Source: a virus. Taken from it: a stretch of 64,000 nucleotides of DNA. The notes under the pieces were generated by a model. The model made no database searches. It was not told the DNA's origin and saw only the letters and a list, made by a program, of their open reading frames with translations. Where the stretch lies: positions 44,996 to 108,995 of IMG/VR virus record IMGVR_UViG_3300005805_000051, one strand, 5' to 3'. Shown here piece by piece: positions 17,103 through 45,213 of the stretch (position 1 is its first letter; the number at the start of each line of letters is the position of its first letter). A program made the translations under genes and the position numbers.

Positions 17103-17143
17103 GGAAAAAGAAAAACGCCGGTTTTGGGTCAGCGGAGCCGGCG
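17103..17143 (-). terminator. Terminator after the tmRNA
   Basis: GCGCCGG..CCGGCG followed by TTTTTCTTTTT on the minus strand. Confidence 0.55.
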
Positions 17144-17405
17144 CGCTGTGATGATCACTTCTGTTGCAAGGTGGAACATCGAACCCCTGACTCATGAATG
17201 AGTCAAGTAGCTGCTAGGCAGCCATTGCGAACTGATAGGTGTCAGTTGCGAGTGTCTCTGTTTAACGTCAGCGACTTGACGATAGCCTCCATAGCTTTCT
17301 GCCGATACTCTGTCGAATCCAAGTCACCCCCGTAAGTTTGAATGGTGGAGGTGGGCGGGTTCGAACCGCCGTCCAAAATATCCGAACGCTACTTCATCAG
17401 CTACA
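17110..17405 (-). ncRNA. ssrA: tmRNA, circularly permuted (two-piece)
   Basis: T-arm and CACCTCCACCA (ending 17343) precede GGGGGTGACTTGGATTCGAC (starting 17331); G3-U70 pair; tag ORF ATDTYQFAMAA* at 17249-17214; outer ends approximate. Confidence 0.9.
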
Positions 17406-17413
17406 TTCTGTAT

Positions 17414-18163
17414 TTATGTCAACACCGTCTGTTGTACCTCGGCAAACCGTGCCACGCGTTCTTCTAGCAACGGGCGCCAGAGTTCAGCCGAAGATTCTTG
17501 CCAAACCAACAGTTTCGGGCACAACTGTACAATCACGATGGTATCTATAGTACCACGACCCAACCATTCTGTCAACGCATCCGCATAAAATGTGGCTTGC
17601 AAGGCATAGTTAGTCACCCGATTGTCCGTTTTGGGTTTTTTGCCAGTTTTAAAATCAATCACCGCAAGACGACCATCGGTCAGTTCCGCACAAATGTCCA
17701 TGCGTCCAGCCACTTTATGACGCGTAGACATGATGCGTGACTCGGACAATAATACCGTGCGAATCCGCGCATTCAGCAGCGTTCCGATCGCCGCGGCCAT
17801 CGGTGGGTCAGATGGGTCTTTCAAATATTTCCACAGAGGCTGCCCCGTGATGAAGGATTCGCAGAAATCATGCCAACGGGTACCGTTTCCCGCGGCGGTT
17901 TTGGTGACTCGATCCGCTTCCACTGCCCCGACGCGTTTCCGCCACTTACGAAGTGCCGATTGCCCTTCATCATCAGTCGCACTCAGCAGTGTCGTAATCG
18001 ACGGATAGCGTTCTCCTTCGCTCGTATACCAACGTTTCCCGTCGTGATAGGTTTCACTCAAGGTGACGCGCAACGGTTGAGGGTCGTAGGTAATCGTCGA
18101 CGCAGGAATGTCAGCCGCATTCCAAAACGGATATTCATGAACATGCCATTCCTGTTGTGTCAT
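17414..18163 (-). CDS. PD-(D/E)XK exonuclease
   Basis: RWY..G.RYPSITTLL..WRKRVG..GT.WH..E..AGRMD..IDFKT..Y.LQ..Y. Confidence 0.9.
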   Translation of the reverse strand: MTQQEWHVHEYPFWNAADIPASTITYDPQPLRVTLSETYHDGKRWYTSEGERYPSITTLLSATDDEGQSALRKWRKRVGAVEADRVTKTAAGNGTRWHDFCESFITGQPLWKYLKDPSDPPMAAAIGTLLNARIRTVLLSESRIMSTRHKVAGRMDICAELTDGRLAVIDFKTGKKPKTDNRVTNYALQATFYADALTEWLGRGTIDTIVIVQLCPKLLVWQESSAELWRPLLEERVARFAEVQQTVLT

Positions 18164-18635: not shown

Positions 18636-20168
18636 TTAGTTCACGCGACCGACGAACAGTCGAGCGCGATCCCACGAAACGTTAAACACCTCACCAGCTT
18701 TCTTATTGACGGGAGTCGCATCACCAGTTGCAGGATGATAGAAGGTACCACTGAAATTTCGAGCGGCACGAAACTGGTGTGTGCCGGGTTCTCCGTAGAA
18801 CAGATAGACACACCGACCATCACTGTGCTGCGCGCCGTCAACACGCACTTCGTGCGAAATGCCTTGATCAACGATACGTAGTTGACTCCATGTGTTGCCA
18901 GAGTGATGTAGCGTAGTATATGTCATGACATCCTTCGGTAGTAACGCGCATATCTTCGGGGTGTTCCAGAAACCATTCTCCACTTGCAAGCCCTTGTCAA
19001 TGGAGACTCCTTCACCGGAGAACCACACATAGGACTGTCGTGCAATCAAACTCTGAAGCGCCAGCGCGACAATCGCTTCATCGTTCAGCTCCTGCTTGTT
19101 CGTGGTAACAGACACCAGATCGCCACTCCCGTTCGGTTCTGACTGAATTCCCAACTTACGCTTGGGTTTGCCTTCGTAGGGAATGGAAAAGATGTGACGA
19201 ATCTTATCCCAAAAATGACCGTCGCGACTGCCATGCACATCATAGCAATCAGCGGGATCAATAGAGAAGGCATCCAGCTCATGTGCTTCCTCGGTGCGCG
19301 GTGAGGTGAGCGTCAGCAGTGCGGTGCCTCCTGCACTCTTATACGCTTGCACAAACTGCGCGAGACGCACCGGGTCAGGCTCGCCGGTTTGCCATGCTTC
19401 GTTGCCCCCATCGAAGAACGCATAGACATACCCCGTACTGTCAACCGCACGACCCACTTCCGCGAGTTTTACGGCAAACGCTTTGCGGTCGGTCATATTA
19501 TCACCAAGAGTGCCAATATCACCTTGCGATACGACGAGTCGCAACTTTCGGTCGACGCACTCTTGCACAAAGTCGCGCCACTCCGTCCAATAGTTCGGGG
19601 TGCTACCGGGATTTACGGTGCGGCCGCCGTGCATCTTCTCCCAATACGACCCACTGAGTAGTGTCCAGACACGCACACCGTGATACCCGGCTTGTGCGAG
19701 CAAATTTAGCTGTCCTCGAACGCGATCTCGGTCGCGTGTCCATAACGCAAATAAATCCCCGGCATGAGCAAACAACGGTAACACGGTACCGGTGTCATCC
19801 ACGAAGGCGTTCTGCTCAATGCGGAGACGACCCACCAGCGGCCGCTCGACCACCGGAATCTCTCGCGAAAGTGTCACGGGAATCTGTGTGTTTTGCGTCA
19901 GCAAAATTTTGCTATGCACGGCCACATACTTGTCGCACTCTACTGCATAGTAGACATCGCCTTGATTGACTTCAATCGCCGCATAACCATTCTCATCGGT
20001 GGCGCGCCGCAGTTCTTCATTGAGACGGAAGGTTGCCCCCACCAGTGGCGCGCCGTCGGTATCGGTTACCACTACCGCAATCGTCGCACGAGGAATAGAA
20101 GGCTCAGGAGTCGGTTGGGGATCGGGACGACCAAAGAGCCACTGAAACAATGACGAGAGAATAGACAT
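18636..20168 (-). CDS. Putative clan GH-A glycoside hydrolase with an N-terminal beta-sandwich domain
   Basis: VTDTDGAPLVGATF..TDENGYA (carboxypeptidase-regulatory-like); GYHGVRVW, GNEAW acid/base and IQSEP nucleophile-like motifs. Confidence 0.6.
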   Translation of the reverse strand: MSILSSLFQWLFGRPDPQPTPEPSIPRATIAVVVTDTDGAPLVGATFRLNEELRRATDENGYAAIEVNQGDVYYAVECDKYVAVHSKILLTQNTQIPVTLSREIPVVERPLVGRLRIEQNAFVDDTGTVLPLFAHAGDLFALWTRDRDRVRGQLNLLAQAGYHGVRVWTLLSGSYWEKMHGGRTVNPGSTPNYWTEWRDFVQECVDRKLRLVVSQGDIGTLGDNMTDRKAFAVKLAEVGRAVDSTGYVYAFFDGGNEAWQTGEPDPVRLAQFVQAYKSAGGTALLTLTSPRTEEAHELDAFSIDPADCYDVHGSRDGHFWDKIRHIFSIPYEGKPKRKLGIQSEPNGSGDLVSVTTNKQELNDEAIVALALQSLIARQSYVWFSGEGVSIDKGLQVENGFWNTPKICALLPKDVMTYTTLHHSGNTWSQLRIVDQGISHEVRVDGAQHSDGRCVYLFYGEPGTHQFRAARNFSGTFYHPATGDATPVNKKAGEVFNVSWDRARLFVGRVN

Positions 20169-20490: not shown

Positions 20491-21144
20491 TTAGGCGTCC
20501 GGAAATCGCGCCGCATGCAGCGCCAAACGCGTTTCCGCGAGGGCATGCACCGTGGGGTCGAGTTCTGTACCCAGATAGCACCGACCGGTGTCTCGCGCCG
20601 CGATTGCGGTCGTGCCGCTCCCCATAAACGGGTCATACACAATAGACTCAGGGGGCGTATAGTTACGAATACAGCGCACCGGCACCATCACTGGCATCCC
20701 ATAGGTATACTGCTCATAGTGCCCATACCCATCGTTCCAGACATCCGGCGCAAACGACGCGTCTTGTGATTGTCGCGCCGCGCGCCACACGCCCGTGCTA
20801 AAGGTCATGACATTCCCGTAGGTCAATCGGAACAGATTGATTTTATCGCTCTTAACCCAAATCTTGTGACTCCGCAGCGTATAGCCGAGGTCGGTCATTG
20901 CATGATACAACGCCAGATGTTTCGGCACAATCGTGCTGCGATGTTTGCGATCGGTGAATGCAACCGTAATCAGGCCCAGTCGCGGACGAAACAACACAAA
21001 CAACTCTGACAAAAATGTTTGATACGCGGTCAGATCGACCGTGCTGCCGACTTCATCAAAATCAGGCGGACTTGTAAACACATAGTCATAGGTGAGGGTT
21101 GGCGCCAGTGTTCGTGCATCCCCACATACAATCGTATTCATCAT
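20491..21144 (-). CDS. DNA methyltransferase (N4-C/N6-A, beta class)
   Basis: DYVFTSPP catalytic motif and YDPFMGSGTT SAM motif; SD GGAGAGG before ATG 21144. Confidence 0.85.
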   Translation of the reverse strand: MMNTIVCGDARTLAPTLTYDYVFTSPPDFDEVGSTVDLTAYQTFLSELFVLFRPRLGLITVAFTDRKHRSTIVPKHLALYHAMTDLGYTLRSHKIWVKSDKINLFRLTYGNVMTFSTGVWRAARQSQDASFAPDVWNDGYGHYEQYTYGMPVMVPVRCIRNYTPPESIVYDPFMGSGTTAIAARDTGRCYLGTELDPTVHALAETRLALHAARFPDA

Positions 21145-21212
21145 ACAGGCACACCTCTCCCATTCTTTATAATATCTATTATAATTTTTATAAGATACTT
21201 GCGGGGATGTTT

Positions 21213-21520
21213 GGAGAGACACCTCTCCCTTGCGGGATTACAGGTGTCTCTCCCTTGCGTATGGACGCCTCGGATCGACTCAGGATGCGATGTAACGTGG
21301 CGGTTAGCCGGTACCACAACGCACCGTATGGTGCGACATCTGCCTCTCACCCTCGCGGGTCTAACGGGAGGTCATCATCCCCATCCTGACGAACATGATG
21401 ACCGCGTAGGTCGTGAGGTTCCACGTGCCCTACATCGTTGGTCGTACGGACCGATTCTCGCGAATCGGCGTATTCGCTGCACCGCGACATTCAAGCGCGG
21501 AAACGAATACTGACTGTCCA
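21213..21520 (-). ncRNA. Putative highly structured non-coding RNA, ~300 nt
   Basis: Intergenic gap with at least seven stems, three GNRA tetraloops on the minus strand, an 8-bp pseudoknot and its own promoter. Confidence 0.7.
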
Positions 21521-21523
21521 CTC

Positions 21524-21552
21524 AGTATAGCGAGTGGGGTCGTGCGCGTCAA
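21524..21552 (-). promoter_or_regulatory. Sigma70-type promoter for the structured RNA
   Basis: TTGACG (21552-21547), 17-nt spacer, TATACT (21529-21524). Confidence 0.8.
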
Positions 21553-21556
21553 GCGA

Positions 21557-22807
21557 TTATTGGAATCGACCTTGTGTCAGGTTCAGTTGTGAGAACCCAC
21601 TGCGGTCGACCAGCTTGACGAAACCTCCCCGACGATCACTGGCGACGAACCCTTCGTGGTCGCCGCGCGTCAGGCCCCCGTCCCCTTGTAGGAACGGACT
21701 AAACTCGGTGCGTAGATTCAGCTTGTTAATCAACGCAAGTTTTGCGTCGATTACGAGGGTTTGCCACGCAATAATGGGTGCCAGTGCCGGAGCAAGTCGC
21801 TTCACCGTCCCGATAAACGCGAGATACTTTTCCCGCACCCCGGTTTTTCCGGCGACGCTCTTTCGGGCGGCACTTTCTTTTTCTTCGAGTCGCTCAAGAA
21901 AATCGACAAACTGCGCCACAAACTGTTGCGGAGCTGGCGTAATGGGCTGCCCTGCTCGCACGAGTTGATTCTGAAACTGCATCAGCAGGTCACGCAAGGC
22001 AGGAGTGGTCTTAAGTGCCGACAAAAACGGATTGCGTTGTAATAGGGCCGTTTGTTTGGAAATCTTAGCAAGGAGCGCATCAATCTCTCGCGTTTCGGCA
22101 GCGGTCATGGTCACGCTACCGGAAACATCCTGATATCGCGTGGGGAACAACAAGACATCAGAGGACGCGCCTAACGCATTCAGATTTGCACCCGGTGTCG
22201 CACGTAGGGTCGCGAGACTCGACCCCGTATAGGTCGTGTGGAACGCAATACCGACCGACGCAGCGAGGACACGTTGACCAAGCGGACTCGCTTCAGGAAT
22301 GCCATACACAATGGTGTTGGGTTTGAAAGTTACATGTGGCACACCATCGATAGTTTGCCGTTTTCGTAAACTTGGCACAAACATCAGGTCGCCTTGCAGG
22401 ACGGTCGTCCAGTTCAGTTGCGAGAGTGCGGTAAACGCAACCTTGAGCGTGTCCACCAAGCCGGGTGCATGCCCGTACAGGCGTTCAATATCGGTCAGGG
22501 ATTTTGCGACCCGCGGCGTTTTAGCTAACGCGCTTTTTGTTGCGACGAAAAACTGGCCGTCATCAGGGTCACGACCCACGACCATTGACGGCGCACCGTC
22601 CACTTTCACGGACAAGTTATACGCTTTGTCCGCATGTCCTTTCAACACATTCGCGACTTGGGTCAGGTAGACGACAGCGGACGCTGCACCGGGATGGTAC
22701 GACGTCCACACCAAATCTTCGAGATGGGTCAGGTGAGACACCACCTGTCGTGGGGCTGCGGCTTCCTGCAACGACACCCACGCATGAAAGGACGAGAGGG
22801 AAATCAT
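21557..22807 (-). CDS. Conserved T4-like phage protein with ligase-superfamily motifs (DUF6267-like)
   Basis: HLTHLED, KVDGAP, FFVATKS, LQGDLMF, FKPNTIVY, HEGFV, VKLVDR; TAATG coupling to dps. Confidence 0.75.
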   Translation of the reverse strand: MISLSSFHAWVSLQEAAAPRQVVSHLTHLEDLVWTSYHPGAASAVVYLTQVANVLKGHADKAYNLSVKVDGAPSMVVGRDPDDGQFFVATKSALAKTPRVAKSLTDIERLYGHAPGLVDTLKVAFTALSQLNWTTVLQGDLMFVPSLRKRQTIDGVPHVTFKPNTIVYGIPEASPLGQRVLAASVGIAFHTTYTGSSLATLRATPGANLNALGASSDVLLFPTRYQDVSGSVTMTAAETREIDALLAKISKQTALLQRNPFLSALKTTPALRDLLMQFQNQLVRAGQPITPAPQQFVAQFVDFLERLEEKESAARKSVAGKTGVREKYLAFIGTVKRLAPALAPIIAWQTLVIDAKLALINKLNLRTEFSPFLQGDGGLTRGDHEGFVASDRRGGFVKLVDRSGFSQLNLTQGRFQ

Positions 22808-23265
22808 TAGACCGATTTCAGGTGGGAGCGCAACTGCCATGCCCACTTGTCGTGCTGCATGATACGGTCTTGGAAGAAGTTCGCGAGTCCGACATCTCCC
22901 AGAGCTTCAGCAGCATTGAATGCGGCATGCAGTGACGTCAAGACGCCAGTGTTTGCGTCCAACACCGCTTGCAGATGTTCGGTGGGATTGCCCCCTTTGA
23001 CTTGCATGTCCGCAATATTCGTGGTGGACAATGCGAACCCAAGCGTTGCCGGGGCGTAGAACTTGTGAAACCGCAGTCCTTCAGCCACGGGGTCAATGGA
23101 GTCGTGAACATCGTCGTAAATCTTGGCGAAGAAGTCGTGAAGGGGTCCGAAGAACGGTCCTTCCACATTCCAGTGCGCGCCGTGGGCCCGGAAATAAAGA
23201 CTATACAAATCGGCCATCAATTGACGGGACGCCGTAACAAATGCTTCTTCTTGAGGTGTAGCCAT
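22807..23265 (-). CDS. dps: Dps / ferritin-like DNA protection protein
   Basis: HGAHWNVEGPFFGPLHDFF..Y....D.VAE..HDKWAWQLRS. Confidence 0.93.
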   Translation of the reverse strand: MATPQEEAFVTASRQLMADLYSLYFRAHGAHWNVEGPFFGPLHDFFAKIYDDVHDSIDPVAEGLRFHKFYAPATLGFALSTTNIADMQVKGGNPTEHLQAVLDANTGVLTSLHAAFNAAEALGDVGLANFFQDRIMQHDKWAWQLRSHLKSV

Positions 23266-44601: not shown

Positions 44602-45213
44602 ATGAATATCTTCCGTTCAAAATCATTTATTGCTGCCTGCGCGTGTGCTGGATTTGCTGTGTTGCTCTTTGCCTTCAACGACGCGACGGCTTTCTGCGTC
44701 ACTCCGCCCGTATCTAAACAAGGCGCTCGGCCACGCACGACCTTCCGCTATCGTGTGGTCGGGTATCAGCCCACAGGGGCGGAGGCGTGTGTTGACCGTG
44801 CATTTGCCGCATGGAACGACGCACTAGTCGATGGGTCAAATATTCAATTCATCCCTGCGGGAAGTAAAGAAAAAATTGATGTCACTATTTTCTTTACCGA
44901 CATCAAAGGTGACGTTGCGGGAGAAGAAATCGCCGGCGGAACAACCCCGGCGTTCAGAGATGCGGAGGGGTATGTAACGGGATTTGGAATTATGATTTCC
45001 ACGAATCCCGCTCTCGTATCGTCTTGCGACGGCTACTATAAAGTAACCCTGCACGAAATTGGACACGGATTAGGACTCGGGCATCCCTATGGGATTAACG
45101 GCACATCCGTGATGAATATGCTGTCTTCTACGAACGACGAGGGCGGGAACGTAGCAGAGTTTCCAACTGCATGCGATATCGGGCAGATCGAGTCCGCGAC
45201 CACGTATCGATAG
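44602..45213 (+). CDS. Secreted matrixin (M10-like) zinc metalloprotease
   Basis: Signal peptide, HEIGHGLGLGH, Met-turn SVM. Confidence 0.88.
   Translation: MNIFRSKSFIAACACAGFAVLLFAFNDATAFCVTPPVSKQGARPRTTFRYRVVGYQPTGAEACVDRAFAAWNDALVDGSNIQFIPAGSKEKIDVTIFFTDIKGDVAGEEIAGGTTPAFRDAEGYVTGFGIMISTNPALVSSCDGYYKVTLHEIGHGLGLGHPYGINGTSVMNMLSSTNDEGGNVAEFPTACDIGQIESATTYR

Follow-up and report, generated by a model that had tools for sequence, protein, structure and literature searches.

What occupies the 412-nt gap that separates a DUF6267 gene from a DNA methylase gene on the minus strand of an uncultured T4-like phage genome? The gap lies in the window analysed here, a stretch of 64,000 nt (positions 44,996 to 108,995) from the 109-kb IMG/VR virus record IMGVR_UViG_3300005805_000051. 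An earlier note, made from the letters of the window, had proposed a structured RNA of ~300 nt with its own promoter, running into an AT-rich tract, and had read it either as a new class of large non-coding RNA or ribozyme, or as an RNA-primed replication origin. Comparison with homologous loci showed that the gap is the gene for a new structured non-coding RNA family of ~320–350 nt, without a match in Rfam 15.

Extent, promoter and distribution of the RNA gene

The predicted gene covers ~320 nt of the window (Table 1), its 5′ end being placed from promoter spacing and its 3′ end from the point where conservation stops; by this spacing we infer a transcription start at about 21517 ± 2. The minus-strand TTGACG-17-TATACT promoter noticed earlier is present at 21552–21524 and matches 10 of the 12 consensus positions. 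In every member a −10 box of the form (TGC)TATA(TA)CT or TATGCT stands at a fixed distance from a conserved ACA(A/G)UCAG, while TTGAC(A/C/G), 17 nt upstream, is kept in 6 of the 13 distinct members displayed, the others carrying a TGCTATATACT extended −10. Each copy thus has, immediately 5′ of the RNA, a conserved promoter of the sigma-70 type or an extended −10. The proposed RNA with a promoter of its own was borne out in this respect, at ~320 nt and with the promoter conserved among homologues. No terminator-like site was found 3′ of the RNA. There is a single copy per genome; when the window's own genome was searched with a covariance model of the family (R1, a 257-position core), no further copy appeared.

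Table 1 Features of the RNA gene and of its neighbourhood. Positions are those of the window unless a locus is named; L018, L021, L027, L100 and L135 are homologous loci.
Feature	Position	Strand	Basis or remark
DUF6267 gene (PF19782, phrog_455), putative ligase-like nucleotidyltransferase, upstream gene	21557–22846	−	profile and fold comparison
−35 box TTGACG	21547–21552	−	sequence
−10 box TATACT	21524–21529	−	sequence
Predicted RNA gene, ~320 nt	21198–21519	−	homologues over the span by nhmmer and covariance model R1; ends approximate, from promoter spacing and conservation
P1, two-part hairpin GUAUUCG..CCGCG/CGCGG..CGAAUAC, conserved loop CUUGAnUG	21470–21510	−	homologous hairpin with compensatory changes in relatives
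H3, hairpin CCGAUUC-GCGA-GAAUCGG	21451–21468	−	sequence and alignment
Joining strand CAAnGAUG, invariant	21433–21440	−	invariant alignment columns
H4 (GUAGG/CCUAC in the window), outer stem and inner stem, invariant ACGU..CCUnACGA	21405–21434	−	covariation; 4 of 6 outer-stem pairs covary
H5, 13-bp hairpin GGUCAUCAU/AUGAUGACC	21370–21403	−	10 of 13 pairs changed on both sides
Pseudoknot 1, 5′ strand UCAGGAUG (H5 loop)	21382–21389	−	complementary to CAUCCUGA
Candidate pseudoknot 2, 5′ strand GUUAG (in invariant CCCGUU)	21361–21365	−	pairs with H9 loop
H6i, short hairpin, ACCC-GCGA-GGGU in the window	21349–21360	−	GNRA cap (GCGA, GCAA or GUAA) in most members
Invariant GAGAGGC, then strand S1 (GAUGU)	21336–21348	−	alignment
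H8, hairpin CGCACC/GGUGCG	21320–21335	−	5 of 5 pairs changed on both sides
H9, hairpin GUGG/CCAC with near-invariant GGUAnnGGnUAACCGCC	21297–21317	−	covariation analysis
Candidate pseudoknot 2, 3′ strand CUAAC (H9 loop)	21303–21307	−	pairs with GUUAG strand
S2 (ACAUC)	21289–21293	−	pairs with S1 in 13 of 13 members (GAUGU/ACAUC or GGAG/CUCC)
Pseudoknot 1, 3′ strand CAUCCUGA	21280–21287	−	complementary to UCAGGAUG
S3 (GGCGUC), alternative S1 partner (helix H7)	21264–21269	−	mismatch in 7 of 13 members
H10, 12-bp stem enclosing UCCC-GCAA-GGGA, invariant 3′ strand GGGAGAGGUGUC	21213–21253	−	alignment
Conserved 3′ tail ..CC(n)GCAA(G)	21198–21206	−	alignment; conservation stops here
AT-rich spacer with TATAAAAA / TATAAAGA	21162–21197	−	probable late promoter with the next gene's 5′ UTR
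N6/N4 DNA methylase gene, inserted between RNA and Zn-ribbon gene	20491–21144; L018 2357–2842	− (window)	window and L018 only
Zn_ribbon_8 / phrog_385 protein, ~91–92 aa	20193–20468	−	first gene 3′ of the RNA in 11 of 13 members
510-aa protein, carboxypeptidase-regulatory-like domain	18636–20168		window
PD-(D/E)XK exonuclease (phrog_298), 250 aa, conserved	17414–18163; L100 887–1639; L021 4742–5503	− (window)	between Zn-ribbon gene and tmRNA
Circularly permuted (two-piece) tmRNA	17123–17435; L021 5667–5979; L100 346–718; L027 4830–5028; L135 7875–7983	− (window)	

In freshwater viral and metagenome contigs the family counts 13 distinct full-length copies, besides one that a contig end truncates, and R1 scores them at 209–260 bits. 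All 14 copies lie directly 3′ of a DUF6267 gene, with 46–93% protein identity, and every locus of this DUF6267 clade with enough sequence beyond the gene contains the RNA. When metagenomes were scanned with a DUF6267 alignment, 11 loci of 46–93% identity were obtained that extend past the stop codon, and nhmmer located the RNA in all 11; further copies came from pattern scans of IMG/VR, and a protein search returned the closer DUF6267 relatives P0002, P0004 and P0005 (67–88% identical).

More distant loci gave a different picture. The IMG/VR relatives of the window's DUF6267 protein at 32–38% identity have no gap, and in ~60 DUF6267 loci of 33–40% identity the genes abut and R1 has no match. 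R1 was also negative in 75 loci of Zn-ribbon relatives (≤42% identity) and in two complete genomes, those of Methylophilales phage Melnitz-3 and phage C48C1, and the methylase relatives of 51–53% identity, which stand in another gene context, have neither gap nor RNA upstream. No match was obtained when the RNA was compared by blastn with 50,697 records of cultured phages, when IMG/VR was searched for an exact 34-mer from the H5 hairpin, or when R1 was run on 5 and later on 151 bacterial genomes (the second set being cyanobacteria), where few candidates were scored per genome. Since R1 is negative in distant loci and in cultured relatives, the RNA family, as sampled, belongs to one uncultured T4-like phage clade. 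The nearest cultured DUF6267 relatives (≤36% identity) are mostly phages of Synechococcus, Prochlorococcus, Pelagibacter and Methylophilales, and two records inspected among them are Kyanoviridae.

Two sets of pattern matches were discarded. A loose pattern matched GTDB genomes at least 120 times, where nhmmer, among the matches listed, gave only marginal partial-profile matches at E 0.17 or weaker that were read as chance, and the additional IMG/VR matches of an H4-motif pattern were likewise attributed to chance, one that was inspected lying inside a 404-aa ORF read as terminase.

A fold maintained by compensatory changes

For the minus-strand RNA the minimum free energy is −137.7 kcal/mol (z = −3.7), a stability matched by none of 100 shuffles. 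Every stem listed in the earlier note is present at the coordinates given for it, and the helices are kept in the homologues through compensatory changes. Covariation across the homologous intergenic regions, the test suggested for this RNA, was measured on a model-based alignment of 13 distinct rows and is strong. Standard pairs fill 93.0% of the pair cells, compared with 79.5% in shuffles and 36–53% when the partners are slid by 1–3 columns; 28 of the 64 pairs have changed on both sides as modelled, against 2–13 when slid; and the covariation score of 0.448, against ≤0.119 for slid partners, was reached by none of 500 shuffles. These analyses show that ~ten helices of the transcript strand are maintained by compensatory changes.

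Support is best for helices H4, H5, H8 and the stem of H9. H10 hardly varies and shows little covariation because its changes are mostly one-sided (G–C to G–U). About one third of the core (82 of 248 positions) is invariant, much of it in junctions and loops, the neighbouring protein being 46–51% identical. The 5′ third consists of 2–3 hairpins that covary to some extent, one of which is missing from the window and L018, and at H3 the relatives carry UAUGAUG-GGAA-CAUCAUA plus one additional hairpin (H2). The transcribed strand is the minus strand of the window, because of the invariant U–G pairs, which occur on that strand only, and the GNRA loops, which read correctly only there, as had been pointed out from the single sequence.

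One element of the original model fell away. A helix between 5′ UGGAC and 3′ GUCCA had been thought to close the domain; it occurs only in the window and in L018, its 93%-identical relative, the other nine distinct 5′/3′ end combinations compared offering a closing pairing of just 2–4 bp. Its 5′ strand also occupies positions 4–8 nt past the −10 box, where transcription has probably not yet begun or is just beginning.

The pairing of the H5 loop with a downstream strand, proposed as an 8-bp pseudoknot, fared better. A perfect Watson–Crick duplex of 6–8 bp is found at the same relative position in every one of the 13 distinct members and comes in seven versions of the sequence (UCAGGAUG, UCAGAAUG, (U)GGAUAA, UGGGUAA, UAUAGUGA, CUGGUAA and UCGGAUAA), and this covariation proves the long-range pairing of pseudoknot 1. 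The window's version resembles a CsrA-like GGA loop, a candidate that was rejected, the other members having no GGA.

An all-against-all column scan revealed a second long-range pairing, of GUUnn with the H9 loop nnAAC, in which one pair occurs as G–C, A–U or U–A and another as G–U, G–C or A–U, and in which 93.8% of the cells are paired, compared with ≤60% when slid. With this moderate support, a second pseudoknot between loop and linker is likely, not proven. Strand S1 has two potential partners, S2, just 5′ of the pseudoknot 1 strand, and S3, and both pairings change in step between subgroups; the two partners may form a conformational switch, or one of the two helices may be genuine and the other only apparent.

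The alternative that the fold arose by chance, or that the gap hides an overlooked small protein gene, is already refuted and retains practically no probability. All that speaks for it are stop-free stretches of 58–111 codons, and these longest open frames vary in strand and frame between members. The protein ORF conserved across the gap that would tell against an RNA was not found in the family; the indels and gaps of the RNA alignment are mostly not multiples of three, the covariation is strong, and G–U pairs are confined to one strand.

Comparison with known RNA families

At gathering score, Rfam 15 matches in the window are limited to the tmRNA and six tRNAs, all of them elsewhere. When the threshold was relaxed to E ≤ 10, the RNA region gave scattered 13–17 bit matches to eukaryotic and viral families, and nothing fell on the RNA in 10 homologous loci. 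A match to a catalogued family would have removed the novelty claimed for this RNA; no Rfam family proved to match it, whether in the window or among the 10 relatives. Fremin, Bhatt and Kyrpides (2023) reported 10,006 unnamed structured-RNA candidates from IMG/VR intergenic regions on the basis of covariation (PMC10690425). The present motif may be among them, since the source, IMG/VR intergenic sequence, and the covariation approach are the same. No such RNA is described in the text of that article.

RNase P RNA (RF00010/RF00011) is similar to the new RNA in length, in its GNRA-capped hairpins and long-range pseudoknots, and in its many invariant junction nucleotides, and the phage also encodes tRNAs and a permuted tmRNA that require processing. 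The new RNA differs, however, in having no covariation-supported 5′/3′ closing helix, and neither a P4-type core nor the CR-I to CR-V blocks could be recognised by eye in its alignment. The bacterial RNase P models, type A and type B, gave no match at E ≤ 10 in the window and 10 relatives.

The phage's own permuted tmRNA is likewise a pseudoknot-rich stable-RNA gene with its own promoter in the same gene block. It was placed at a separate site (Table 1) by ARAGORN and Rfam, whereas the new RNA has no tRNA-like domain or conserved tag frame, and ARAGORN found nothing in the RNA region. An RNAduplex comparison between the new RNA and the phage tmRNA is uninformative at such length.

A group I intron was considered and rejected. 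RF00028 does not match, DUF6267 is complete with its stop, the next genes have their own ATG, and the RNA has its own promoter; at the RNA junction the DUF6267 gene is intact, Pfam profile positions 2–374 of 376 being matched before the stop codon. The order of its helices, H4-H5-H6-[S1-H8-H9-S2/PK1], does not correspond, read by eye, to group I P3–P8.

With ROOL and GOLLD the new RNA shares a phage-borne, independently folded and intricate multi-helix architecture with long-range loop contacts, and a location near tRNA or tmRNA genes. It differs from them in matching no Rfam model and in helix order, hosts and environment, and it is about half their size or less. ROOL and GOLLD form cages with intermolecular contacts (10.1101/2024.12.08.627333). 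By analogy with these cages, loop–strand duplexes of the pseudoknot 1 kind might in principle join separate molecules.

Gene neighbourhood and possible roles

The RNA is part of a gene block whose order is conserved, running from a Dps/ferritin-like gene through DUF6267, the RNA, the methylase (window and L018 only), the Zn-ribbon gene and the PD-(D/E)XK exonuclease to the permuted tmRNA. On balance, we consider it somewhat probable that the RNA gene stands alone and encodes a trans-acting, compactly folded phage RNA. It would be transcribed by the unmodified host polymerase, i.e. early in infection, and, since no terminator follows, would be shortened to a stable RNA with its 3′ end near ..GCAAG. 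This RNA would act in trans through its three-dimensional fold, most likely as the RNA component of a protein complex, as the ligand of one or as a ribozyme, and would work within a phage nucleic-acid-metabolism module made up of the ligase-like DUF6267, the Zn-ribbon protein, the PD-(D/E)XK exonuclease and the tmRNA; it would be neither a leader of the next gene nor a replication primer. Dense covariation, long-range pairing and an invariant third of the core form a pattern that is seen in ribozymes and ribonucleoprotein RNAs. The RNA also appears independent of the gene that follows, the methylase separating an intact RNA from the usual Zn-ribbon gene in the window and L018; nor was any conserved masking of a ribosome-binding site found 3′ of it.

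A role in cis is conceivable because the Zn-ribbon gene follows within ~70–135 nt and in the same orientation in 11 of the 13 members, all of a single clade, the methylase intervening in the other 2. The RNA would then be a leader, riboswitch-like or protein-binding, that controls the next gene, normally the Zn-ribbon gene, from the early promoter. We regard this as unlikely, although the RNA is co-oriented with the next gene and ~55–135 nt from its start in all members, is not separated from it by a terminator, and contains in the pairing of S1 with S2 or S3 a potential switch. A late-promoter-like box stands between RNA and gene in 10 of 12 members, the methylase insertion left the RNA intact in both of its carriers, no expression platform of the terminator or SD-sequestering type was found, and the spacer past ..GCAAG is unconserved. 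Furthermore, Zn-ribbon homologues of ≤42% identity occur without the RNA, and 320 nt far exceeds the size of known riboswitch aptamers.

The AT-rich tract described in the earlier note does follow the RNA, the 70 nt 3′ of it being 73% A+T. A (C/A)TAAATA box lies 8–60 nt past the RNA in 10 of 12 members, ahead of the ribosome-binding site of the next gene, and several members have a T-run and AAATGAGGA in front of the Zn-ribbon start codon. T4-type late promoters have the form TATAAATA, and on this basis the tract probably represents a late promoter and the 5′ UTR of the next gene.

This bears directly on the proposal of an RNA-primed replication origin, in which a promoter, a structured RNA that serves as primer and an AT-rich element for unwinding would act together as in ColE1 RNA II or a T4 R-loop. 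The three elements do follow one another in that order in all members, as they do in ColE1 RNA II and the T4 oriF–oriG R-loop primers. However, the AT tract holds the late-promoter-like boxes and 5′ UTR just described and is conserved in neither sequence nor length, the cumulative GC skew has no turn at the RNA or the tract (21 kb), and the covarying pseudoknots and invariant loops, which amount to far more conserved tertiary structure than in the known primers, go beyond what priming needs. We regard the origin reading as very improbable.

Within the preferred reading of a trans-acting RNA, catalysis deserves separate consideration. The RNA could be a ribozyme that processes its own 3′ end, or a trans catalyst acting on phage or host RNA such as tRNA and tmRNA precursors. 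Its compact multi-pseudoknot core with many invariant junction nucleotides, the sharp end of conservation where there is yet no terminator, and the synteny with a permuted tmRNA that requires processing are all consistent with this. We nevertheless hold it to be rather improbable, as the RNA is unlike any Rfam ribozyme family, a cleavage-site signature was not identified, and protein binding fits the high conservation equally well.

The gene immediately upstream offers a possible protein partner. Residues K81, D83, G84, E398, G399 and K411 are invariant in 12 DUF6267 sequences, giving the motifs KxDG, EG and a late K. With the AlphaFold model of DUF6267 (pLDDT 75), Foldseek returned nothing at E ≤ 0.001, and VIA-align returned, among its top matches, 5cot (Z 6.8, 186 aligned, rmsd 4.4), 1xdn (Z 6.8), 9r3w (Z 6.0) and 2hvq (Z 6.0), as well as several DNA ligases (Z 5.0–5.9), all with Z < 8 and with ligase alignments that span 160–199 residues; the RNA ligases near the model are of the Rnl2/Rnl5 type. 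A profile search of PDB sequences and Pfam named no ligase for DUF6267. At these middling Z scores, the model is suggestive of an RNA/DNA-ligase nucleotidyltransferase fold with an inserted helical bundle. Many more distant DUF6267 relatives have a C-terminal extension (595–663 aa).

The RNA might accordingly be imagined as a substrate or cofactor of DUF6267, being adenylylated, sealed or circularised, or serving as a guide or scaffold for RNA repair. The immediate adjacency in 14 of 14 copies, the invariant ligase-like motifs, and the Rnl2/Rnl5-type and DNA ligases retrieved at Z 5.0–6.8 would fit such a partnership. Adjacency is weak evidence, though, and the fold scores are middling with no significant Foldseek match. 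Moreover, DUF6267 is a core gene of T4-like cyanophages, pelagiphages and methylophages without the RNA and is common in marine T4-like phages that have none, and the ~60 loci of 33–40% identity and the two whole cultured genomes were negative. We judge the partnership to be distinctly improbable.

Returning to the trans-acting RNA, a bolder version, which we consider possible though doubtful, would make it a new class of catalytic or ribonucleoprotein phage RNA without known relatives: an early, double-pseudoknotted RNA of ~320 nt that acts on host or phage RNA metabolism or translation. Examples would be the processing or repair of tRNA and tmRNA together with the adjacent RNA-ligase-like enzyme, or an RNA-only particle assembled through the loop–strand duplex. 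Few large, complex-folded RNA classes are known from bacteria and phages, and earlier ones proved to be ribozymes, the cores of ribonucleoproteins or assemblies made of RNA alone. The new RNA bears the usual marks of such RNAs, namely covarying helices, long-range pairing and invariant junctions, and is small enough for direct structure work. Its placement with a ligase-like enzyme, an exonuclease and a tmRNA points to unexplored RNA handling by T4-like phages of lake bacteria, and the covariance model and the 13-member alignment can now be used to find further members.

Two smaller observations concern the genes that follow the RNA. The permuted tmRNA lies 1.5–4 kb downstream of the RNA in every relative that reaches so far, and in the window it encodes the tag ATDTYQFAMAA. 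The ribosome-binding site of the window's methylase gene, GGGAGAGGUGU (21151–21161, minus strand), repeats 11 nt of the H10 3′ strand (21219–21229, minus strand) and could for that reason compete for the H10 5′ strand; the likeness is probably a chance one between SD-like sequences, because L018 differs at this site (GGAAGAAGUGU).
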